Below, in pieces: positions 53,415 to 61,025 of a DNA stretch of 64,000 nucleotides; the stretch's first letter is position 1; each line of letters starts with the position of its first letter. This stretch comes from a virus (lineage: Duplodnaviria; Caudoviricetes). The notes beneath the pieces are model-generated. The model searched no databases and was not told the origin of the DNA. It was given only the letters and a program-made list of their open reading frames with translations. Location: the IMG/VR virus record IMGVR_UViG_3300021400_000252; one strand, 5' to 3'. Made by a program: the position numbers and the translations under genes.

Positions 53415-54002
53415 ATGTTAAATTATTTTAAAGAACAAATGTCTATAATTGAAAAGTCTTTAGAATCTTTATCTGAAGAGAACTTCAATGACATTTTAAA
53501 TCAAGCTGAAACCTGTATTAAAAATGGTGGAAAGCTAGTATTTTCAGGATTAGGAAAAAATGTTCCAATCTGTGAAAAGATTGTAGGTACTTGTACTTCA
53601 TTAAGTATTCCAGCTGTATTTATGCATACTAATACAGCAATGCATGGTGATTTAGGTTATATTGGTAAGAAAGATCTAGTTTTTGTCTTATCAAAGAGCG
53701 GTAATACTGCAGAGTCTATTTTACTTGCAAATTATTTAAATCAACGTGGCGATAGAGCTATAGCTGTTACTTTTAATAAGGACAGTTTATTAAATAAGAC
53801 TTTAAGTACTAATCTTACTTTAGAGTTAGAACATGAAGGCGATAATTGGAATATTGTTCCTAATGCGTCAAGTTCAACTTATTTAATTTTACTTCAAGGT
53901 TTAGCATTACAATTAGCTGATAGACTTGGAATTACATTAGTTGATTTTAAGTATAATCACCCAGGTGGAGCTATTGGAAGCATTCTAAAGGATGTAAAAT
54001 AA
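53415..54002 (+). CDS. SIS-domain sugar-phosphate isomerase (KdsD/KpsF-like, no CBS domains)
   Basis: SGLGKN, AMHGDLG, SKSGNT, HPGGAIG. Confidence 0.87.
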   Translation: MLNYFKEQMSIIEKSLESLSEENFNDILNQAETCIKNGGKLVFSGLGKNVPICEKIVGTCTSLSIPAVFMHTNTAMHGDLGYIGKKDLVFVLSKSGNTAESILLANYLNQRGDRAIAVTFNKDSLLNKTLSTNLTLELEHEGDNWNIVPNASSSTYLILLQGLALQLADRLGITLVDFKYNHPGGAIGSILKDVK

Positions 54003-54054
54003 TTGCTAAATTTTTAACATAGGCTTTGTATTATTACATTGTCTATGTTCTCTT

Positions 54055-54150
54055 AGGGGCTTGGTGTAACGGCAGCACAGCGGTCTTCAAAACCGTAAAA
54101 GGCCGAGTCCAAACCGGCCGGTGCGGGTTCGAATCCTGCAGCCCCTGCCA
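54055..54150 (+). tRNA. tRNA-Trp(TCA), UGA-decoding, long extra arm
   Basis: AGGGGCT/AGCCCCT-G-CCA acceptor, GCGGT-CT TCA AA-ACCGT anticodon arm, GGTTCGAATCC T arm. Confidence 0.92.
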
Positions 54151-54171
54151 GAACAAATAAAAAGTTAGGAG

Positions 54172-54804
54172 ATGATTCTAATGAGTTACTGTAAGAGATG
54201 TTATCTCGAAAAGATTAACCCAGAAGCAAGACAAGAAAACTTTATTTATTTTGAAGAACCAGGTAAGTGTGAATGCTGTGGTAAAACACGTTTATTAGTT
54301 GATTCTTATGAAAATGATGAAGATTATATGTCGATTGCAGAGTGTAATGAAGAAACAAGAAAGCATATTGCTATGGTACAATATTACATTAAATTAATTA
54401 CTGATGAATTAACTCAAAGAGGTATTGACCATGATGCATCTAAATTAGTTTCACCAGAAGTAGAGATTTTTGCTAAGAATACTAAAAAGTTAGCAAGATT
54501 AAAATTCCAAAATGAAAATGGTGAAATGAGTGAAGAATATAAACAAAGTCTAGAAAATATTAGTGAAGCAACAGCACATCACTATGCAGTTAATAGACAT
54601 CACCCAGAACATTATCCTGATGGAATTAATGGAATGGATCTAGTAGATATCTGTGAAATGTTAGCTGACTGGAAGGCTGCTTCATTAAGACAACATGATG
54701 GAAATCTATTAAAGTCTATTGAAGCAAATGCTAAGAGATTTGGAATTAGTCCACAATTAACTAAAATTTTGGTAAATACTGCAAAATTAATTGATAGAAA
54801 TTAA
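54172..54804 (+). CDS. HD-like protein (DUF5662-like) with N-terminal Cys motif
   Basis: HDASK, HHYAVNRHHPEHY, EMLADW. Confidence 0.72.
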   Translation: MILMSYCKRCYLEKINPEARQENFIYFEEPGKCECCGKTRLLVDSYENDEDYMSIAECNEETRKHIAMVQYYIKLITDELTQRGIDHDASKLVSPEVEIFAKNTKKLARLKFQNENGEMSEEYKQSLENISEATAHHYAVNRHHPEHYPDGINGMDLVDICEMLADWKAASLRQHDGNLLKSIEANAKRFGISPQLTKILVNTAKLIDRN

Positions 54805-54831
54805 AAAATTATAAAAAATTTCAAAAAAGTA

Positions 54832-54860
54832 TTTACAAATTTAAGATTTTGTTGTATATT
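54832..54860 (+). promoter_or_regulatory. Sigma70/SigA-type promoter
   Basis: TTTACA-17 nt-TATATT. Confidence 0.6.
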
Positions 54861-54914
54861 AGTAGTGAAGTTAATCAAAAACTTCAAAAAATTAAAAAAT
54901 TTTTAAAAAATATA

Positions 54915-54943
54915 TTTACAAAATCAAAAATTTATTGTATAAT
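54915..54943 (+). promoter_or_regulatory. Sigma70/SigA-type promoter
   Basis: TTTACA-17 nt-TATAAT. Confidence 0.75.
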
Positions 54944-55070
54944 ATAAATGTAAAATGATTTGGTGCTAGTAAGTTCGGAACTAGCTAAGTGGAAAAACCT
55001 AAGTCTCGGCCAAATTTATTTATATTATATGAAAAAATTTAAAAAATATTGTATAATATAAAGTAAACAA

Positions 55071-55704
55071 TTAAATATGCTTAATAATGATTACCTATTA
55101 CCCTAGTGAATGACCGTTTGTTACGGTGCTAGGATAGCGGCTGACAAAGATTCGTAGCTTGCAAAAAATCTTCGTTCATAGACGATAGCCTATGATGGCA
55201 AGTCGATTCGGAAGTATATATTGAAATCAAACCGAACACAATCTTCAAAGAAGAATTACGATAGTCGTTAGTGTATTTGTTATTATTAGAGTTAAGACAT
55301 GATTCTTCTCGGTTCCACAATAGATGATAACCAAAAGTTATATGAATCCTAGTTAGGAATAAGCCTGGAAAACTTACTCAAACCTAGGAAAATCCACAAG
55401 GGACTTGACAGTTGAATACCTAGTAATAGGGATATAAGAGAAGTTTACATGTGAGTAGCCGTATCTGTCGAATACAAAGAAGAACAACCCTTACTTAAAA
55501 GCATGGAACTTTTATAATGATTGTAATTATTTCTGAATACTCGGTGAAAGTTAGAGGTAATGAGTCCTCTCAGTGCTAGACAGCGGTAAGAAGTTTAGAG
55601 GTAGCTCCTTTAAGCTCAGACTTATCGTCACTGTAGTCAAACAACTACCTTAATAATGAAATAAGATGAAAGTCTAATAAGTAGTTATTATTAAGCATAT
55701 TTAA
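55071..55704 (+). ncRNA. Large structured ncRNA, ROOL-like (GOLLD is the alternative)
   Basis: About 630 nt without a credible ORF, closed by a 24-bp terminal stem (55071-55094 with 55681-55704, two G-U), many internal hairpins, upstream TGTATAAT, next to tRNA array. Confidence 0.72.
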
Positions 55705-55739
55705 TAAAAAATAAAAATTTTTGAATTGCTAAAAATAAT

Positions 55740-55750
55740 TAGCTAAATTA
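55740..55750 (+). promoter_or_regulatory. Putative late promoter TAGCTAAATTA upstream of tRNA-array leader
   Basis: Repeated intergenic motif. Confidence 0.62.
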
Positions 55751-55796
55751 AGTGATATCAAATCAGATATCAACAATCTATTTAGGAGATGAAATA

Positions 55797-55931
55797 ATGA
55801 GAACAGTTTTAATGACAAATGTATCTTGGAATTTTAATAACTATGTCTCTTCAAACGTTAATCCGTTTGGTTATTTCGATGCGCCTAATGCGAATGGGTA
55901 TGATGCCGATTATAGTAATTCAAATAAATAG
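55797..55931 (+). CDS. 44-aa leader peptide of the tRNA array (not in ORF track)
   Basis: AGGAG RBS; MRTVLMTNVSWNFNNYVSSNVNPFGYFDAPNANGYDADYSNSNK. Confidence 0.78.
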   Translation: MRTVLMTNVSWNFNNYVSSNVNPFGYFDAPNANGYDADYSNSNK

Positions 55932-56034
55932 AAGTTAAGTTACTGAAAGATGTAGCTTAACAAAAATTAAGCTACAATGAATAAAAGTATCAGTAACAGT
56001 TCCATAGATTGTTTTACATATATTCCCTTTGTTC

Positions 56035-56066
56035 AACGTAGCTAGATGGTTACGTTTTTTATTTTT
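56035..56066 (+). terminator. Attenuator-like terminator between leader and tRNA array
   Basis: AACGTAGCT-AGAT-GGTTACGTT plus T-run; competing upstream helices. Confidence 0.7.
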
Positions 56067-56137
56067 ATTAATATCTTACCGTTAGCTCCTCGGTTTTGAG
56101 CTTCGATCCGTTGTACGTTAAGCCTCGGTAATCCCAT

Positions 56138-56213
56138 GGGGTTGTAGCTCAGTTGGGAGAGCGCTAGCTTTGCAAGCTAGATGTCGCGAGTTCGAGCCTC
56201 GTCTTCTCCACCA
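56138..56213 (+). tRNA. tRNA-Ala(TGC)
   Basis: Cloverleaf, G3-U70, CCA; two T-T mismatches in acceptor stem. Confidence 0.9.
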
Positions 56214-56289
56214 GGGACCGCATGTTCTGAGATAGCGAGACAGTTTTGCAAACTGACTGTTGTGGGTTTGACTCCCACCGGCTCCACCA
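56214..56289 (+). tRNA. Atypical tRNA-Ala(TGC)
   Basis: G3-U70, loop TT TGC AA, T loop TTTGACT, divergent D arm, CCA. Confidence 0.7.
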
Positions 56290-56307
56290 CTAAAATTTAA
56301 TAACATA

Positions 56308-56367
56308 GAGCCTATACTTATTTCTAAAATCTAATAAAGTTCTTTGGGTGAATATAATAGTTAGGCC
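56308..56367 (+). ncRNA. Bulged-stem repeat RNA, copy 1
   Basis: GAG-CCTA-T-ACT-TATTTC...T-AGT-TAGG-CC. Confidence 0.68.
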
Positions 56368-56375
56368 AAGTTAAT

Positions 56376-56452
56376 GGGGGCTTAGCTCAGCTGGTTAGAG
56401 CAGTGGACTGTTAATCCACGTGTCGCAAGTTCGAATCTTGCAGTCCCCGCCA
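56376..56452 (+). tRNA. tRNA-Asn(GTT)
   Basis: Canonical cloverleaf, CCA. Confidence 0.95.
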
Positions 56453-56468
56453 ATAATTAAATATTAAT

Positions 56469-56561
56469 GTCGAGTTGGCAGAGTCTGGTTTATTGCGACG
56501 GTCTTGAAAACCGTTGACGGTGATGAGCCGTCCGTGGGTTCGAATCCTACACTCGACGCCA
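56469..56561 (+). tRNA. tRNA-Ser(TGA)
   Basis: Cloverleaf with long variable arm, G73, CCA. Confidence 0.93.
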
Positions 56562-56660
56562 TAGGTATGCTAGTGGTACCTATATGCGTGGTTTGTTAAG
56601 GGGTTTGTTAACAAGCATACAAAAATAACTAGTTCATGAAAATCAAATTCCACCGTATTT

Positions 56661-56736
56661 GCTCCGTTACGTCAACTGGGAGACTACAATCCCTACAAGA
56701 TTGTGGCTGTAGGTTCGAGTCCTGCACGGAGCACCA
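56661..56736 (+). tRNA. tRNA-Val(TAC), C33 variant
   Basis: CAATC-CC TAC AA-GATTG, canonical T arm, CCA. Confidence 0.85.
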
Positions 56737-56765
56737 TTAAAAATATTAAAGAAGGAGTTAAAGCG

Positions 56766-56843
56766 ATGTTTATCTTAAGTACACGATTTAGCAGCTTAAA
56801 ATTTAATACTTATATAAATGCCGCTTTAGCTGAAATAGATTAG
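56766..56843 (+). CDS. 25-aa Phe-codon leader peptide overlapping atypical tRNA-Phe
   Basis: AAGGAG RBS; MFILSTRFSSLKFNTYINAALAEID. Confidence 0.58.
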   Translation: MFILSTRFSSLKFNTYINAALAEID

Positions 56844-56894
56844 CACTAGGTTGAAGCCCTAGGGATGTTGGAGCATTACCAACAGGCGGCACCA
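56820..56894 (+). tRNA. Atypical tRNA-Phe(GAA), AGCATTA T loop
   Basis: All four stems pair; loop TT GAA GC; CCA. Confidence 0.75.
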
Positions 56895-56899
56895 TATAT

Positions 56900-56975
56900 G
56901 GACAGTTGGCATATGTGGTCTGTGCGCTAGTCTGAAGAACTAGATATCTTGGTTCGATTCCAAGACTGTCCACCA
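56900..56975 (+). tRNA. tRNA-Phe(GAA)
   Basis: Cloverleaf, loop CT GAA GA, CCA. Confidence 0.92.
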
Positions 56976-56983
56976 ACTTAAAT

Positions 56984-57060
56984 CCGGATTTAGCTCAGCT
57001 TGGTAGAGCACTTGGCCTGGGACCAAGGGGTCAGAGGTTCGAATCCTCTAATCCGGACCA
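56984..57060 (+). tRNA. tRNA-Pro(TGG), C33 variant
   Basis: C1-G72, loop CC TGG GA, CCA. Confidence 0.9.
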
Positions 57061-57078
57061 CTAAAAATTAAATAATTA

Positions 57079-57231
57079 GAGCCAAAGCTTATTTCAAATT
57101 TTCAGGGCACCTGCGTGTCGATGGTTCGAATCCATCCCTCCCGACCAGCTAATATAATTATTATATTAGTAGTTATATCTCGGGACGGTAGCTCAGTAGG
57201 TAGAGCAGCAGGATATAAATTTAGCTTGGCC
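57079..57231 (+). ncRNA. Bulged-stem repeat RNA, copy 2, with circularly permuted tRNA domain (YrlA-like)
   Basis: tRNA 3' half 57110-57147, hairpin linker, tRNA 5' half 57181-57212, enclosed by GAG-CCAA-A-GCT-TATTTC / T-AGC-TTGG-CC. Confidence 0.78.
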
Positions 57232-57239
57232 ATATTAAT

Positions 57240-57316
57240 GGTGTCATAGTTTAGTTGGTTAGAATGCCGGCCTGTCACGTCGGAGATCGCGGGTTCGAGT
57301 CCCGCTGGCACCGCCA
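57240..57316 (+). tRNA. tRNA-Asp(GTC)
   Basis: Canonical cloverleaf, G73, CCA. Confidence 0.95.
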
Positions 57317-57321
57317 TAACT

Positions 57322-57398
57322 CGGGATGTAGGCCAGTTGGTTAAGTCGCTGGTTTTGGGAACCAGAAATCGAGTGTTCGAGTCACTCCATTCCGACCA
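57322..57398 (+). tRNA. tRNA-Pro(TGG)
   Basis: C1-G72, loop TT TGG GA, CCA. Confidence 0.9.
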
Positions 57399-57440
57399 AA
57401 TAAGTTGTGGGTATAATAAGACTTGAAACCCTCGAAAAGT

Positions 57441-57515
57441 GTGCGAGTCGTTTAATGGTTAGGACTTCTGCCTTCCAAGCAGATGATGCCGGTTCGATTC
57501 CGGTCTCGTGCTCCA
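57441..57515 (+). tRNA. tRNA-Gly(TCC)
   Basis: Cloverleaf, U73, CCA. Confidence 0.92.
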
Positions 57516-57546
57516 GTAACAAAAATCTTTAAAGGAGAATAATGTC

Positions 57547-57618
57547 ATGGAATATTATTATTATTATCGATATTGCATTAAAAATTTAATAACTATATTT
57601 CGTGGCGTAGTTCGTTAA
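57547..57618 (+). CDS. 23-aa Tyr-run leader peptide overlapping atypical tRNA-Tyr
   Basis: AAAGGAG RBS 9 nt upstream; MEYYYYYRYCIKNLITIFRGVVR. Confidence 0.65.
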   Translation: MEYYYYYRYCIKNLITIFRGVVR

Positions 57619-57685
57619 AGAGGCGAGGAAGTCCGTAAAACTTTCATCTTAGATCCGCTGGGAGCATTACCCAGAGCCACGACCA
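57601..57685 (+). tRNA. Atypical tRNA-Tyr(GTA), AGCATTA T loop, C33
   Basis: CGTGGC/GCCACG acceptor, GAAGT-CC GTA AA-ACTTT, CTGGG/CCCAG T stem, CCA. Confidence 0.68.
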
Positions 57686-57689
57686 CTAT

Positions 57690-57774
57690 GGCCAGATAGT
57701 CTAGCGGCAATGACTGGAGACTGTAAATCTCCTCCCTTCGGGGTTCGTAGGTTCGAGTCCTACTCTGGCCACCA
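57690..57774 (+). tRNA. tRNA-Tyr(GTA)
   Basis: Canonical bacterial Tyr with variable arm, CCA. Confidence 0.94.
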
Positions 57775-57797
57775 TTTTATTGTATTATATATTATAT

Positions 57798-57872
57798 GTG
57801 GTAGTAGTATAACGGTTATTATACCTGGTTGCCATCCAGGAGATGGCGGTTCGATTCCGCTCTATCACTCCA
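57798..57872 (+). tRNA. tRNA-Gly(GCC)
   Basis: Cloverleaf, U73, CCA. Confidence 0.92.
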
Positions 57873-58067
57873 TAAATAGATATTATAAGGTACCTATAAT
57901 ATTCAGTGAAACTCTGATAGTGGTAAAAATACTTTATACTAATTGCAATGTCGTATAGAGTCACTTTGTCCGTACCGGTGAGGTCACACAATAAACTGTA
58001 TTCATCGGCCCATTTAAAAATAATTATTATATTAATAATATTAAATATAAAAAGGAAGTGTTTTATC

Positions 58068-58493
58068 ATGAGTAGTACAAGTATGTACTGGCGTGTTCAT
58101 AGTGACATGCAAACAGCAAGAAAAGAAAAGAATGAAGTTAATAAGAGCATCTTATCATTGCTTTATAGTGAGTTAAATAAGAAAGCTATTGAGTTAAGAG
58201 TTGAAGAGTTAACAGATGCAGATTCTACTAATGTAATCAAGAAATTTGCTAAGCAATTAGATGAAGAGATTGAGTCTAATGTAAAAGTTGGTAGAACAGA
58301 AAAAGCAAACGAATTAACTTATCAAAAGAATTTAATTCAAACATATTTACCTAAGCAATTAAGTGAAACTGAAATTAAAGATATTTTAGCTACTCTAGAG
58401 GATAAATCAATTCCTTCAGTAATGAAATACTTTAAGACAAATTATAATGGCTTAGTAGATATGAGCTTAGTAAGCAAGTTAGCAAGAATGTAA
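58068..58493 (+). CDS. GatB/YqeY domain protein
   Basis: AAGGAAG RBS before ATG 58068; YLPKQLSETEI, VMKY...GLVDM. Confidence 0.85.
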   Translation: MSSTSMYWRVHSDMQTARKEKNEVNKSILSLLYSELNKKAIELRVEELTDADSTNVIKKFAKQLDEEIESNVKVGRTEKANELTYQKNLIQTYLPKQLSETEIKDILATLEDKSIPSVMKYFKTNYNGLVDMSLVSKLARM

Positions 58494-58564
58494 ATTTAAT
58501 AAGTTCTCCAAGACAAGATAAAGTCTATAAAACCTAACAAATTTTAGAATAAGGAGAACTTACA

Positions 58565-58630
58565 ATGAATTTCTTACGCAGAATTGCAGATTTATTCGTG
58601 ATGGTTTTGATGTCTAGTATTAACGACTAA
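58565..58630 (+). CDS. 21-aa leader peptide upstream of tRNA-Met
   Basis: AAGGAG RBS; MNFLRRIADLFVMVLMSSIND. Confidence 0.55.
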   Translation: MNFLRRIADLFVMVLMSSIND

Positions 58631-58650
58631 TTAAAACCATCTTTTTTCTT
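58600..58650 (+). terminator. Terminator overlapping leader ORF, ending at tRNA-Met 5' end
   Basis: GATGGTTTTGAT / ATTAAAACCATC 12-bp stem plus TTTTTT. Confidence 0.6.
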
Positions 58651-58729
58651 GGCTCGGTAGCACAATTGGCTAATGCACTCGGTTCATACCCGAGAGATTT
58701 TGTGAGTTCGACTCTCACCCGAGCCACCA
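58651..58729 (+). tRNA. tRNA-Met(CAT), elongator type
   Basis: G1-C72, loop TT CAT AC, CCA. Confidence 0.85.
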
Positions 58730-58752
58730 TGATATTGTATATTATACTGTAT

Positions 58753-58826
58753 AGGTGCGTCGTTCAATGGTAGGACTGTGGTCTCCAAAACCGCGTATGA
58801 GGGTTCGAATCCTTCCGTGCCTGCCA
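58753..58826 (+). tRNA. tRNA-Trp(CCA)
   Basis: A1-U72, G73, loop CT CCA AA. Confidence 0.93.
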
Positions 58827-58846
58827 TAAAGAAAGGATATGATATC

Positions 58847-59143
58847 ATGGAAGTATATTTTATATCAATGTTAAAAGGATGGGACAAATATGGTCCTACA
58901 GGTCTTAGAACTGTTGGCTATTTTGAAAGCTTTGATGAAGCAGAAGAAAGAGTTATAGGTAATGTGTGTGATTTATATGAAGATGGTTATTGGCCATATG
59001 CAATAATTGAAAACATTGAACCTGGCTTATATCAAATTTGTGAACATCCAATATTTTATAAGTTTAACAAAGAAAAAGAACAATTTGAAAAGATTGATTT
59101 TCCAGAAGAACTTCAAATGTTTAGAGGTTTTACTATCGGGTAG
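58847..59143 (+). CDS. Hypothetical phage protein (98 aa)
   Basis: Track start overlaps tRNA-Trp; AAGGA RBS supports ATG 58847; RTVGYF...CDLYE...YAIIE. Confidence 0.72.
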   Translation: MEVYFISMLKGWDKYGPTGLRTVGYFESFDEAEERVIGNVCDLYEDGYWPYAIIENIEPGLYQICEHPIFYKFNKEKEQFEKIDFPEELQMFRGFTIG

Positions 59144-59153
59144 GAGGTAAGCT

Positions 59154-59660
59154 ATGAATTACATATTCTTAGATGTAGATGGTGTTCTTAATAATGAGAC
59201 ATATTTTCGTCAACACTTAGATGATGATGGAATTTTAGACGAAGAAAATATTAAATTATTAGCTGATTTAGTAAGTAAAACTAATGCTAATGTAGTATTA
59301 TCTTCTTCTTGGCGTACTCTATTTACAGAAAAAGGAAATCCTAGACGTCCTATCTTTGAAAATGGCACTCGTCGTGGTTTTGAATTAAAGAGACTATTAA
59401 AGAAATATGGAATTAAAATCATTGGTAGAACAGAGGTTGCTAAAAATAAATTTGGAGATTACTATGATGTTGGAGAACGTCCAGATGAGATCTTTAATTA
59501 TATAATGCATAACTTAACTGCTGGTGATAAATTTGTTATATTTGATGATGAAGATTTTAGAGGAGGTATGAAGAGATTTGCTAATAATTTTATCATTACT
59601 GATTGGAAGTATGGCTTACAAGAAAAAGATATCAAAAAAGCATTAAAGATATTATTATAA
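59154..59660 (+). CDS. HAD phosphatase of the Swiss-army-knife RNA-repair type
   Basis: IFLDVDGVLN, VVLSSSWR, FVIFDDE, GL. Confidence 0.85.
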   Translation: MNYIFLDVDGVLNNETYFRQHLDDDGILDEENIKLLADLVSKTNANVVLSSSWRTLFTEKGNPRRPIFENGTRRGFELKRLLKKYGIKIIGRTEVAKNKFGDYYDVGERPDEIFNYIMHNLTAGDKFVIFDDEDFRGGMKRFANNFIITDWKYGLQEKDIKKALKILL

Positions 59661-59684
59661 TGTTGTATAATAATATATGAACTT

Positions 59685-59775
59685 GGCGACTTACTCAAGC
59701 TGGTGAAGAGGACGCACTGCTAACGCGTTAGGCCGAGAGATCGGTGCGAGGGTTCGAACCCCTCAGTCGCCGCCA
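59685..59775 (+). tRNA. tRNA-Ser(GCT)
   Basis: Cloverleaf with long variable arm, G73, CCA. Confidence 0.93.
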
Positions 59776-60125
59776 AACAGTTGGTTGATTTAGTCACTAG
59801 GATACCAACACTCATTGGATGAAGACTAACGTCGCGAATGAGAGGTGAAGGAAGAGAATCTATCTTGGCAATTGCTATAGGATGGATTTTAAAGGATACG
59901 ACCTTCTACAAAGGATACCTAATCGTCCAAAAGTCCTTTTATTTAATTAAATATTAAAAATATATTTAAATTTTTTAAATAATATTGTATAATATATATG
60001 TGGATGCCTGAGTCTCTGAGTCGACGGTTAGATATCAGCCATTTAGCGATGGAAGTGATCTAATTATAGCGAAAGAGATAGCTACTGCAGAGCGAGCGTA
60101 CTACGGTCCCTCAGGCCTAATATAT

Positions 60126-60201
60126 TGCGGGCGAGTGAATGCGGTCTCACGCAGGGCTCATAACCCTGAAATACGCGGTTCGACTCCGCGGCCCGCAACC
60201 A
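60126..60201 (+). tRNA. Initiator-type tRNA-fMet(CAT)
   Basis: GGG/CCC at base of anticodon stem, loop CT CAT AA, T1-A72, CCA. Confidence 0.85.
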
Positions 60202-60238
60202 ATCGGTTGGGAATGGCAAACCCTCAAGCTCAGTTACC

Positions 60239-60576
60239 GATGCCAGAAAGACGATGCGATCGAGTTATTTATTTTCGATCTTAAATAAGATAATAGATCT
60301 GGAAATCTGGTTGGCTAGTTGGCGTGAACCTAGAAATAGGAGCGTTTGCAACAGACCTACAAGATGCGATCGTGAGTAGGCAAGCACAGGCAAGAGACAG
60401 AGAATGGGATGCTTTTAAATGTAAGCTACGGTTGAGTCATTCTGCAGAGGACACAAGGGTCACCAAGGATCAAAGACCAAAACACGGGTTGATAGTTTAA
60501 AATGGTAAAACGCCGGCATGAATGTCGGAAATGTTGTTCGAGACGATAATACCCACCAGGTTACGGTTCTGGCATC
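60239..60576 (+). ncRNA. Unidentified structured RNA with embedded tRNA-like domain
   Basis: GATGCCAGAA/TTCTGGCATC closing stem; GC-rich, no long ORF; tRNA-like 60486-60558. Confidence 0.5.
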
Positions 60577-60659
60577 TACACAAGCCATGGTTAGGAAGAT
60601 GCTAGCTTTAGCTAAAATATTGGCTAAATTATAAGTATTAAAATTTTATATGGAGACTA

Positions 60660-60791
60660 ATGATGGTAGTAACATTAATTTGTACTGCTATTATCTTAAT
60701 TGCATTTGGTTTTGCAGCTCATTATATTGATTCTTCTTATGAAGATTTCAAAGAATATATGGAAACTCAAAATAAATACAATGATAGATAG
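60660..60791 (+). CDS. 43-aa single-pass membrane peptide (not in ORF track)
   Basis: GGAG RBS; MMVVTLICTAIILIAFGFAAHY...; GGCTAAATTA upstream at 60622. Confidence 0.6.
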   Translation: MMVVTLICTAIILIAFGFAAHYIDSSYEDFKEYMETQNKYNDR

Positions 60792-60917
60792 TAACCTATA
60801 AATTTGCTTATAGCTAATTACTGTAAGCTAATTTTTAGAGATATCATGAAAACGTTTTCTTCAAATTCTCCAGAAAAATTTTAAAATTTATTGTATAATA
60901 TAATGATCAAATAATTA

Positions 60918-60999
60918 GAGGCTATACTTATTTCTTAAAAGTAGGTTATCACAGGTTCGAATCCTGTATCCGCCACTCGGCAGATATGTTAGTTAGTCC
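60918..60999 (+). ncRNA. Bulged-stem repeat RNA, copy 3, with T arm plus loop-closed acceptor stem
   Basis: GAG-GCTA-T-ACT-TATTTC...ACAGG TTCGAAT CCTGT ATCCGCC-ACTC-GGCAGAT...T-AGT-TAGT-CC. Confidence 0.75.
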
Positions 61000-61025
61000 T
61001 ATATTATTTGCTAAATTATGATGTA

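Follow-up and report, generated by a model that had tools for sequence, protein, structure and literature searches.

Two cassettes in the tRNA array of the 64,000-nt stretch of phage DNA analysed here (the window) each consist of a leader mini-ORF rich in Phe or Tyr codons, an elbow-variant tRNA into which that ORF reads, and a canonical isoacceptor. In the Tyr, Phe and Lys leaders, the bases surrounding the AUG are complementary to the opening 8-13 nt of the tRNA that follows, a newly noted feature that suggests where control may be exerted. The evidence leans towards a reading in which the cassettes are paralogous leader mini-ORFs in a polycistronic tRNA transcript that would sense the speed of cognate decoding and gate the folding and processing of the first tRNA. 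The complementarity and its covariation, the ORFs, their codon content and their overlap with the tRNAs are read from the sequence and its comparison with relatives.

Organization of the Phe and Tyr cassettes

The Phe cassette (56752-56975, plus strand) contains the following parts.

56752-56757, plus strand: Shine-Dalgarno sequence AAGGAG of the Phe leader, 8 nt before the ATG and inside the spacing range of the phage's long ORFs (sequence)
56766-56843, plus strand: Phe leader mini-ORF, with its ATG at 56766, 18 leader codons, 7 codons read in the tRNA, and TAG
56756-56773, plus strand: predicted region 1 of the Phe switch (end of the Shine-Dalgarno sequence, spacer, AUG and first codons), partner 56814-56831 (predicted folds)
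56814-56831, plus strand: predicted region 2 of the Phe switch, the final 6 leader nt and tRNA nt 1-12, covering the 5' side of the acceptor and the beginning of the D stem (predicted folds)
56820-56894, plus strand: elbow-variant tRNA-Phe(GAA) (ARAGORN; Rfam, 44.1 bits for RF00005 at 56820-56891 against a gathering score of 29; cloverleaf fold; tertiary covariation in relatives)
56900-56975, plus strand: canonical tRNA-Phe(GAA) (ARAGORN, Rfam)

The Tyr cassette (57531-57774, plus strand) is built in the same order.

57531-57537, plus strand: Shine-Dalgarno sequence AAAGGAG of the Tyr leader, 9 nt before the ATG at 57547 (sequence)
57547-57618, plus strand: Tyr leader mini-ORF, with 18 leader codons, 5 codons read in the tRNA, and TAA (homologues in L123, L002, L124, L125 and L133)
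57537-57555, plus strand: predicted region 1 of the Tyr switch (last Shine-Dalgarno base, spacer, AUG and three codons), partner 57595-57613 (predicted folds)
57595-57613, plus strand: predicted region 2 of the Tyr switch, the final 6 leader nt and tRNA nt 1-13 (predicted folds, alignment)
57601-57685, plus strand: elbow-variant tRNA-Tyr(GUA) (cloverleaf fold, compensatory changes among six homologues)
57690-57774, plus strand: canonical tRNA-Tyr(GUA) (ARAGORN, Rfam)

These Shine-Dalgarno sequences, start codons, variant T loops and 3' canonical isoacceptors, together with their coordinates and the 54 nt from ATG to tRNA (56766 to 56820 for Phe; the second ATG, 57547, to 57601 for Tyr), had been picked out in an earlier note and are all present in the sequence. 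The canonical isoacceptor follows after 5 nt in the Phe cassette and 4 nt in the Tyr cassette, within the 4-5 nt given there. The T arm reads GG-AGCAUUA-CC in both variants, and these are the sole AGCATTA loops in the window with a 5-bp closing stem.

In the Phe leader, TTT occupies codons 2, 8 and 13, so that Phe accounts for 3/17 leader codons against 3.7% in phage proteins (P = 0.02); the TAG stop (56841-56843) falls inside the tRNA D stem. The Tyr leader carries TAT at codons 3-7 and 9, with the rare CGA as codon 8, and here the cognate share is 6/17 against 4.7% (P = 8e-5); its TAA stop (57616-57618) lies within the tRNA D loop. A start at ATG 57542, which would give a frame with a run of Ile codons, was rejected because the gap to the Shine-Dalgarno sequence is just 4 nt and because this ATG is missing in three of the six homologues (L123, L002 and L133).

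The variant tRNA-Phe has the T loop AGCAUUA, a D loop without GG and an encoded CCA. The variant tRNA-Tyr features the same T loop, a short extra arm, a C1-G72 pair and C33. It is not called by ARAGORN and has no RF00005 match at E up to 1, and it folds as a cloverleaf with the anticodon GUA.

Conservation and codon content of the leaders

The Tyr homologue set comprises six sequences (the window, L123, L002, L124, L125 and L133) that fall into three leader sequence types. Leader lengths are 54, 51, 51, 45, 45 and 57 nt, all multiples of three, and the exact 54 nt of the two cassettes does not extend to the relatives. All six have a Shine-Dalgarno sequence, an ATG in the TAT frame, 4-6 Tyr codons among 14-18 (P = 6e-5 to 3e-3) and a stop codon within the tRNA D loop. 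TAT/TAC exchanges are present among them, and over codons 3-10 the type-B leaders of L123 and L002 differ by five synonymous changes and one non-synonymous change. The suggestion that the leaders are translated is thus borne out to the extent that every homologue keeps the signals in this frame, and the match between enriched codons and the following tRNA holds across all three Tyr types. The Phe leader, a single almost invariant sequence (near-identical in L123, L124 and L125, without informative variation) with three cognate codons, supports the assignment more weakly than the Tyr leader.

The match extends to other amino acids. In 10 of 11 Shine-Dalgarno-led leaders, selected post hoc by Shine-Dalgarno strength, the most enriched residue has a tRNA in the block directly downstream. 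Tyr leaders are followed by two tRNA-Tyr genes and the Phe leader by two tRNA-Phe genes. Lys/Arg/Cys-rich leaders in relatives read into a canonical tRNA-Lys that heads a Lys-Arg-(Cys) block: in L001 the enriched residues are K and R, and the block reads Lys, Lys, Arg; in L131 they are R and K, ahead of Lys, Arg, Lys, Arg; and in L002 they are C, R, K and F (Cys P = 2e-5), with the block Lys, Lys, Arg, Cys ... Phe. The first cognate codon is codon 2-5 in every leader, a position from which a stalled ribosome would cover the start region. Comparable ORFs at about 100 unrelated phage loci gave no match between codons and tRNA block, and tRNA-specific scans of the collection with two patterns recovered the L002 contig alone.

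The variant T loop and the leader had been presented as parts of one cassette, a connection that does not survive comparison. About 60 unrelated AGCAUUA-loop tRNAs from IMG/VR, examined upstream as had been proposed, have no Shine-Dalgarno-led ORF with cognate enrichment, and one relative has the variant tRNA-Phe with the leader absent. Because relatives carry Lys/Arg/Cys leaders before canonical tRNA-Lys, the leader is, on sequence comparison, a trait of this lineage's tRNA arrays and not of the variant tRNAs.

Elbow-variant tRNAs

The tRNAs with an AGCAUUA T loop make up a class that is widespread, enriched in viruses and marked by a variant elbow (A18:G55, A54/U58). The T loop of the class reads A54-G55-C56-A57-U58-U59-A60, and its D loop, AAAAGUR, has one G only. 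Tertiary covariation is seen at the elbow, where A18:G55 alternates with G18:U55 and G19-C56 with U19-A56, and covariation in the D, anticodon and T stems maintains the cloverleaf among the six Tyr homologues. The commonest members are Tyr, Lys and His, and many of the approximately 60 unrelated members directly follow another tRNA. BLAST against cultured phages returned canonical tRNAs only and no odd-loop tRNAs. ARAGORN detects 13 of 62 AGCAUUA-loop tRNAs, and phage tRNA inventories are therefore undercounted.

Compared with canonical elongator tRNAs (RF00005), the variants share the cloverleaf, the 7-bp acceptor stem, the 5-bp T stem with G53-C61, the anticodon loop and the encoded CCA, and they keep identity marks, G-1 of the His members among them. 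However, the T-psi-C-R-A loop and the D-loop G18 G19 are missing from both cassette variants, and covariation points to A18:G55 where G18:psi55 would be. Beside RF00005, the closest known counterparts are reduced-elbow tRNAs such as those of mitochondria. T54 and psi55 would both be missing from their usual positions. The class offers a natural alternative solution of the tRNA elbow.

Array context, promoters and terminators

AAGGAG occurs 15 times on the plus strand of the 64 kb, and three of these occurrences precede mini-ORFs in the tRNA array. The array opens with a 44-codon master leader (55797-55931) followed by a terminator; residues 8-43 of this leader are limited to the ten amino acids that the array serves. 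A Met-codon leader with a hairpin and U run lies upstream of tRNA-Met. Leaders start 13-17 nt past the preceding tRNA. No promoter was called in the A/T-rich block that the leaders share, and the one nearby plus-strand promoter-like site overlaps the Tyr Shine-Dalgarno sequence. A search of 53500-61000 for a T-box gave no Rfam match at E up to 1. An alternative genetic code was rejected: the standard one fits, with TGA as the stop codon of 13 of 47 long plus-strand ORFs.

The terminator-like hairpins and U runs of two other leaders in the array are what would be expected if leader translation modulated Rho-dependent or unrecognised termination before the tRNAs, as in classical attenuators. In the Phe and Tyr cassettes, however, no terminator-like hairpin was found either between leader and tRNA or just past the first tRNA, and the leader RNA is C-poor, so that transcriptional control of this kind is very unlikely.

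Predicted pairing of the leader start region with the tRNA 5' strand

All structures discussed here are thermodynamic predictions and consist partly of A-U and G-U pairs. Nine of 10 leaders are predicted to form a helix, termed the closing helix, that joins the start region to the tRNA 5' strand; the Pro leader of L133 has no such prediction. In the predicted Tyr helix, the AUG lies opposite C1, G2 and U3 of the tRNA. When the Tyr, Phe, LysA and LysC paralogues are compared, the pre-AUG sequence varies together with the 5' strand of the tRNA, and mean duplex energy is -8.3 kcal/mol for cognate pairs versus -4.4 for non-cognate pairs. Shuffling gave P = 0.001-0.0135 for seven of the eight leaders tested, including the Phe duplex (-7.9 kcal/mol, P = 0.0135), and for LysB the start region did not pass the narrow duplex test (P = 0.46). 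Among 960 control windows upstream of leaderless tRNAs, 1-1.5% pair equally well. In alignment, 86.9% of the helix cells are paired, compared with 31-54% when the register is slid, and the eight core pairs of the six-sequence Tyr alignment are paired in 48 of 48 cells. Changes within the Tyr set are one-sided only, because the tRNA strand is invariant.

In the models, pairing of the start region with the acceptor 5' strand and formation of the acceptor stem are mutually exclusive. The closing-helix and cloverleaf forms are predicted to lie 0-4 kcal/mol apart. When transcripts are grown in the predictions, the closing helix belongs to the best fold of each until region 3, the acceptor 3' strand, is made; in LysA and LysB, plain minimum-energy folding gives the cloverleaf.

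The earlier note had proposed that ribosome invasion of the tRNA is itself the switch: an unhindered ribosome would enter the acceptor and D arms and block folding or processing, and stalling on cognate codons would free the tRNA. In this form of control, invasion would unfold both arms and block RNase P, a stalled ribosome would stay upstream, and the complementarity of the start region would play no role. Part of this stands, in that the ORF ends in the 5' third of the tRNA in all Tyr, Phe and Lys leaders, with the cognate codons upstream and, in the Tyr and Phe leaders, a spacer of at least 15-18 nt past the last one. The start region of each leader is predicted to pair with the acceptor 5' strand, and invasion as the sole switch is improbable. 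Such occlusion alone would leave unaccounted for the covariation between the tRNA 5' strand and the bases ahead of the AUG, the crowding of cognate codons beside the AUG and the unusual C1-G72 of the variant tRNA-Tyr, in which C1 is predicted to pair with the AUG's G; overall it is considered unlikely.

The same helix could instead be a processing or stability signal for excision of the spacer, for instance by a double-strand-specific or 5' end-dependent RNase, with the mini-ORF no codon sensor and the codon bias a by-product of pairing A/U-rich repeats. The predicted helix would leave the entire spacer as its loop, in the type A fold a conserved AAYUUAAUA motif is paired with the TAT run, and the leaders have no promoter of their own at their position close behind a tRNA. 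This explanation does not readily accommodate the Shine-Dalgarno sequence and Tyr-frame ATG kept in six of six homologues, nor the TAT/TAC exchanges among them. In the Lys leaders, the K/R/C content, including four rare Cys codons, tracks the tRNAs of the block, which is hard to obtain through pairing alone, and a pure processing role is quite improbable.

Functional micro-peptides, possibly made only once tRNA folding frees the start site, or chance in A/T-rich DNA can hardly be regarded as probable at all. TAT repeats and short ORFs are common at 29% G+C, and N-L-I residues recur in the Tyr leaders; yet the peptide tails are dictated by the tRNA sequence and the leaders diverge freely outside the cognate codons. 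Against chance stand the joint statistics of codon enrichment, block match, duplex shuffles and control windows.

A possible attenuator acting on the tRNA acceptor stem

In the favoured reading of a leader that gates its tRNA, three RNA segments would compete: region 1 (the leader start site), region 2 (the leader end and acceptor 5' strand) and region 3. Translation of the leaders, stalling within them and an effect on RNase P processing are inferred. In untranslated RNA, regions 1 and 2 would pair once the first bases of the tRNA are made, locking both the start site and the acceptor strand. An unhindered ribosome would move off region 1 and into the tRNA as far as the D-arm stop codon, thus sitting on region 2. 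A ribosome awaiting cognate aminoacyl-tRNA at codons 2-9 would remain on region 1 and mask the start region; region 2 could then pair with region 3, the cloverleaf would form, and RNase P could release the tRNA. The logic would be that of the trp attenuator, with the acceptor stem replacing the antiterminator and without a terminator. Since the decision would then be reversible, and the tRNA could fold once the ribosome leaves, the regulatory range may be small.

The output is likely to be an on-demand second tRNA-Tyr or tRNA-Phe, because the gated tRNAs are elbow variants that are each followed by an ungated canonical copy. A more specific proposal, tentative and on present evidence somewhat doubtful, is that the acceptor stem is the regulated element of an attenuator for a reserve elbow-variant tRNA that would mature only when Tyr or Phe decoding fails, for example when a host nuclease destroys the ordinary tRNAs. 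If so, this would be post-transcriptional, terminator-free attenuation in the phage-host conflict over tRNAs. If the gating model holds, phages would gauge decoding speed directly and tune their own tRNA supply codon by codon, the regulated step could be tRNA folding and not tRNA transcription, and the purpose of large phage tRNA arrays would become testable with a 250-nt construct.

Comparison with known systems

Leader-peptide attenuation is a textbook mechanism with genes for amino-acid biosynthesis and for synthetases as its known targets; tRNA genes are, to our knowledge, not among them. Literature searches brought up no account of cognate-codon leaders ahead of tRNA genes, nor of AGCAUUA T-loop tRNAs.

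Phage tRNAs are known to replace host tRNAs cut by anticodon nucleases, as with T5 tRNA-Tyr against retron Eco7 and tRNA-Lys against PARIS and PrrC. The elbow-variant class likewise comprises extra phage copies of tRNAs, Tyr and Lys among them, with altered loops. However, the known examples are altered in the anticodon loop and these in the elbow, and no defence system is tied to this phage. T-box riboswitches also provide feedback, in that genes of an amino-acid system respond to the state of one particular tRNA belonging to it, although a T-box binds uncharged tRNA directly and without an ORF. In the translational attenuation of ermC and cat, a drug-stalled leader ribosome frees a ribosome-binding site. 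The proposed switch resembles this in that a ribosome stalled on the leader would remodel downstream RNA without a terminator, and differs in that the stall would come from a lack of cognate aminoacyl-tRNA and would free an acceptor strand.

Finally, there are the leader-peptide attenuators of enterobacterial amino-acid and synthetase operons (trpL, pheL, pheM of pheST, hisL, leuL, thrL and ilvL). As in trpL-type systems, a Shine-Dalgarno-led short ORF is full of cognate codons, the position of the ribosome would select the 1:2 or 2:3 pairing, and the OFF state would arise from both untranslated and fast-translated RNA. In contrast to those systems, a 3:4 terminator was looked for and not found, region 1 consists of the start site and not the codon run alone, the ORF ends inside the product RNA, and the genes that would be regulated are tRNAs, whose own acceptor stem would take the part of the 2:3 pairing.

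The tRNA array

The sequence covers the part of a large, uncultured phage genome that carries its tRNA genes. The window has a G+C content of 29%, no close relative of it was found among cultured phages, and the contigs related to it are of metagenomic origin. ARAGORN detects 17 tRNA genes within 54055-60201. Immediately 5' of the array is a full-length ROOL RNA (55078-55695), which scores 246.9 bits. The genes around the array encode SNF2 helicase, SIS, DUF5662 and YqeY, as well as a HAD domain of RNA-repair proteins. A YqeY-like protein (57948-58493) and the HAD domain of 'Swiss Army Knife' RNA-repair proteins (59154-59660) are encoded within the array itself, which suggests that the phage invests in repairing its tRNAs or controlling their quality.

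Three further elements were observed here. A 96-nt tRNA at 54055-54150, with the anticodon UCA and a long extra arm, is labelled SeC by ARAGORN, and may be a UGA reader or suppressor, because the standard code otherwise fits the window. At 57100-57216 there is a permuted tRNA-like element, in the order T arm and acceptor 3' strand, A/T hairpin, acceptor 5' strand and D arm, with a weak, below-threshold match to YrlA (Y RNA-like; 26.6 bits) and a fold z of -2.6. Directly 3' of tRNA-Ala, at 56214-56289, a degenerate tRNA-like sequence has the T loop UUUGACU and an imperfect acceptor stem, and its fold is not better than those of shuffles.

Phe and Tyr cassettes

Two cassettes in the window consist of an SD and mini-ORF leader, an overlapped variant tRNA and a canonical isoacceptor:

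Phe cassette: AAGGAG at 56752, ATG at 56766, tRNA at 56820; leader stop at 56841-56843, in the D stem
Tyr cassette: AAAGGAG at 57531, ATG at 57547, tRNA-like gene at 57601; leader stop at 57616-57618, in the D loop

All of the coordinates that the earlier note gave for both are borne out on the sequence, as are the ATG-to-tRNA distance of 54 nt in each and the entry of both ORFs into the tRNA. The overlapped genes fold as cloverleaves with the anticodons GAA (Phe) and GUA (Tyr), and the AGCATTA T loop said to be common to them was confirmed; no other AGCATTA loop in the window is closed by a stem. ARAGORN also places the expected canonical isoacceptors 3' of the variants, at 5 nt (Phe) and 4 nt (Tyr); the variant tRNA-Tyr itself was missed by both ARAGORN and Rfam. 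In the window and in the related phage contigs L123 and L002, this tRNA has C33 (within 57632-57638) instead of the nearly universal U33, which is retained in the relatives L124, L125 and L133.

The nearby YqeY gene, used as a protein query, yielded relatives at 2 viral and 17 metagenomic loci. The Tyr cassette, with the canonical tRNA-Tyr 4-5 nt behind the variant, is present in L123, L002, L124, L125 and L133. There are three types of Tyr leader, quite unlike one another in sequence and 45 to 57 nt long. The lengths are all multiples of three, and every leader has an SD, an ATG in the TAT frame, four to six Tyr codons and the same reading frame into the tRNA; an alternative ATG (57542) occurs only in the window-like type. 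Between the L123 and L002 leaders ten codons differ, five of them synonymously (including TAT/TAC exchanges), with only one non-synonymous change within codons 3-10. Measured against the phage's own amino-acid usage, Tyr enrichment has P = 6e-5 to 3e-3, and the proposed match of Tyr codons to tRNA-Tyr is conserved in the window and five relatives, across three leader types. For Phe, the proposed match is more weakly supported, by three TTT codons (P = 0.02), and the leader is almost identical in the window, L123, L124 and L125, and therefore provides no conservation test. L133 has a variant tRNA-Phe without a leader, and the gene at the Phe position in L002 has the anticodon GGU and no leader.

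Leaders before other tRNA blocks

A systematic scan detected the same kind of leader before canonical tRNA-Lys genes of the relatives.

SD-led, Lys/Arg/(Cys)-rich leaders running into canonical tRNA-Lys, with their most enriched residues and the tRNA block behind
L001, 4494-4556: K, R; Lys, Lys, Arg
L002, 5243-5317, and L126, 283-357: C, R, K, F; Lys, Lys, Arg, Cys ... Phe
L131, 918-998: R, K; Lys, Arg(ACG), Lys, Arg(UCU)

The four Cys codons of the L002/L126 leader have P = 2e-5, and the most enriched residue has a tRNA in the next block for 10 of 11 SD-led leaders. Because such leaders precede canonical tRNA-Lys, and because comparable ORFs at about 100 unrelated phage loci gave no codon-block match, the leader belongs to this lineage's arrays and not to the variant tRNAs; the link to odd tRNAs drawn in the earlier note does not hold.

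The leaders have in common an upstream block, a CGA-containing block and an AAYUUAAUA motif, and start 13-17 nt 3' of the preceding tRNA, as paralogous modules inside a polycistronic transcript, in agreement with the paralogy first proposed for the cassettes. The Arg codon CGA makes up 0.18% of phage codons, yet is present in nearly every leader (window, L001, L002, L131, L133). AAYUUAAUA is found 10-20 nt 5' of the tRNA in the Tyr, Phe and one Lys leader, where the reading frames differ.

Two other leaders occur in the window. At the head of the tRNA array stands an SD-led ORF of 44 codons (55797-55931; homologue in L133, 38-187). Its residues 8-43 are drawn from just ten amino acids (A, D, F, G, N, P, S, V, W, Y); these ten and Met are the amino acids of the tRNAs behind it. 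By arithmetic from phage amino-acid usage, such a restriction has a chance of about 0.51^36. On the 3' side of this ORF there is a terminator-like hairpin (56035-56056; 56035-56066 with its U run). The other leader is an SD-led ORF of 21 codons, two of them internal Met codons (58565-58630). It overlaps a stable hairpin (-14.6 kcal/mol, z = -3.7), and the U run that follows ends at tRNA-Met (58651); the leader, hairpin and U run (58565-58650) look like a classical attenuator. Both leaders, which belong to the same array, point to repeated use of leader sensing by the phage.

Pairing of the start site with the tRNA

Each leader was folded together with the first bases of its own tRNA. The stretch from the SD end through the AUG and first codons is predicted to pair with the last leader bases and tRNA nt 1-8, extending to nt 12-13 in longer transcripts of both window cassettes. 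This predicted closing helix, an element new to this analysis and beyond the earlier note, is found in all Tyr types, in Phe and in the three Lys types, with energies from -10.7 to -16.4 kcal/mol.

The tRNA 5' strands vary between paralogues, and the pre-AUG bases vary in step. For a 10-nt start window against tRNA nt 1-9, the mean duplex energy is -8.3 kcal/mol for cognate and -4.4 kcal/mol for non-cognate pairs; seven of eight start windows beat shuffles (P <= 0.0135), and of 960 control windows taken upstream of tRNAs that lack a leader, only 1-1.5% pair as well. Across six Tyr sequences, 86.9% of cells are paired, versus 31-54% with the register slid, and none of the six has lost any of the core eight pairs, which are maintained via C-G to U-G changes. 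The AUG is predicted to pair with C1 G2 U3 of the variant tRNA-Tyr, which may explain its unusual C1-G72. When transcript growth was simulated, the best fold remained the closing helix up to the point at which the acceptor 3' strand was made. Once the RNA is complete, the closing-helix form and the cloverleaf differ by a predicted 0-4 kcal/mol.

A variant-elbow tRNA class

A scan of IMG/VR for the T arm plus CCA returned at least 119 stretches. Applied to prokaryotic genomes, the same pattern gave 121 matches, of which about 9 are convincing genes, most of them located on MAG contigs. The variant class is widespread and virus-enriched.

Variant tRNA loci
IMG/VR: L003-L121
MAG contigs: L178, L181, L206, L218, L220, L250, L255, L260

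Among the IMG/VR matches listed, 71 of 129 have a perfect T stem and an acceptor stem, and there are at least 62 distinct variant genes for 18 amino acids, most frequently Lys, Tyr and His; ARAGORN detects 13 of the 62. The class has the T arm GG-AGCAUUA-CC and the D-loop consensus AAAAGUR, and its His members retain G-1. Since, again among the matches listed, a canonical isoacceptor was not found in the fetched stretch for 51 of 62 and only 7 adjoin a tRNA for the same amino acid, the variants are in general ordinary members of phage tRNA sets.

The T loops among the window's relatives are AGCAUUA, AGCGUUA, AUCGUUA and AGAGUUA, with A54 and U58 constant. In both Phe and Tyr genes the D loop covaries with the T loop (AG with G55, GG with U55), and in one relative's gene a D-loop U accompanies A56. 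This covariation indicates an L-shaped fold with A18:G55 in place of G18:psi55. There are compensatory changes in the stems, and the variants are probably functional tRNA-shaped RNAs. One variant tRNA (L002, 5736-5810; anticodon GGU, T loop AGAGUUA with the matching D-loop change) has an acceptor stem in common with the window's variant tRNA-Phe, as if the anticodon had switched within a single gene lineage. The literature searched yielded no description of the variant-elbow class.

Proposed mechanism and comparison with known systems

We infer a mechanism in which the start site (region 1), acceptor 5' strand (region 2) and acceptor 3' strand (region 3) would compete. Without translation, 1:2 would form and the tRNA could not fold. 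During fast translation, the ribosome would leave region 1 and sit on region 2 until the stop in the D arm. A ribosome stalled on cognate codons would be held on region 1, allowing 2:3 to form, the tRNA to fold and RNase P to release it; in keeping with this, every leader has its first cognate codon at codon 2-5. Neither cassette was found to contain a terminator or to be followed by one, so that what is controlled would be how the first tRNA folds and is processed, rather than transcription. In the window this gated tRNA would be the variant isoacceptor, with the canonical copy behind it made regardless.

No description of cognate-codon leaders before tRNA genes was found in the literature searched. 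The three mutually competing regions resemble those of the trp attenuator, and the cassettes would follow the same logic as leader-peptide attenuation; however, the terminator that defines such systems is absent here, and the regulated structure would be the product tRNA itself.
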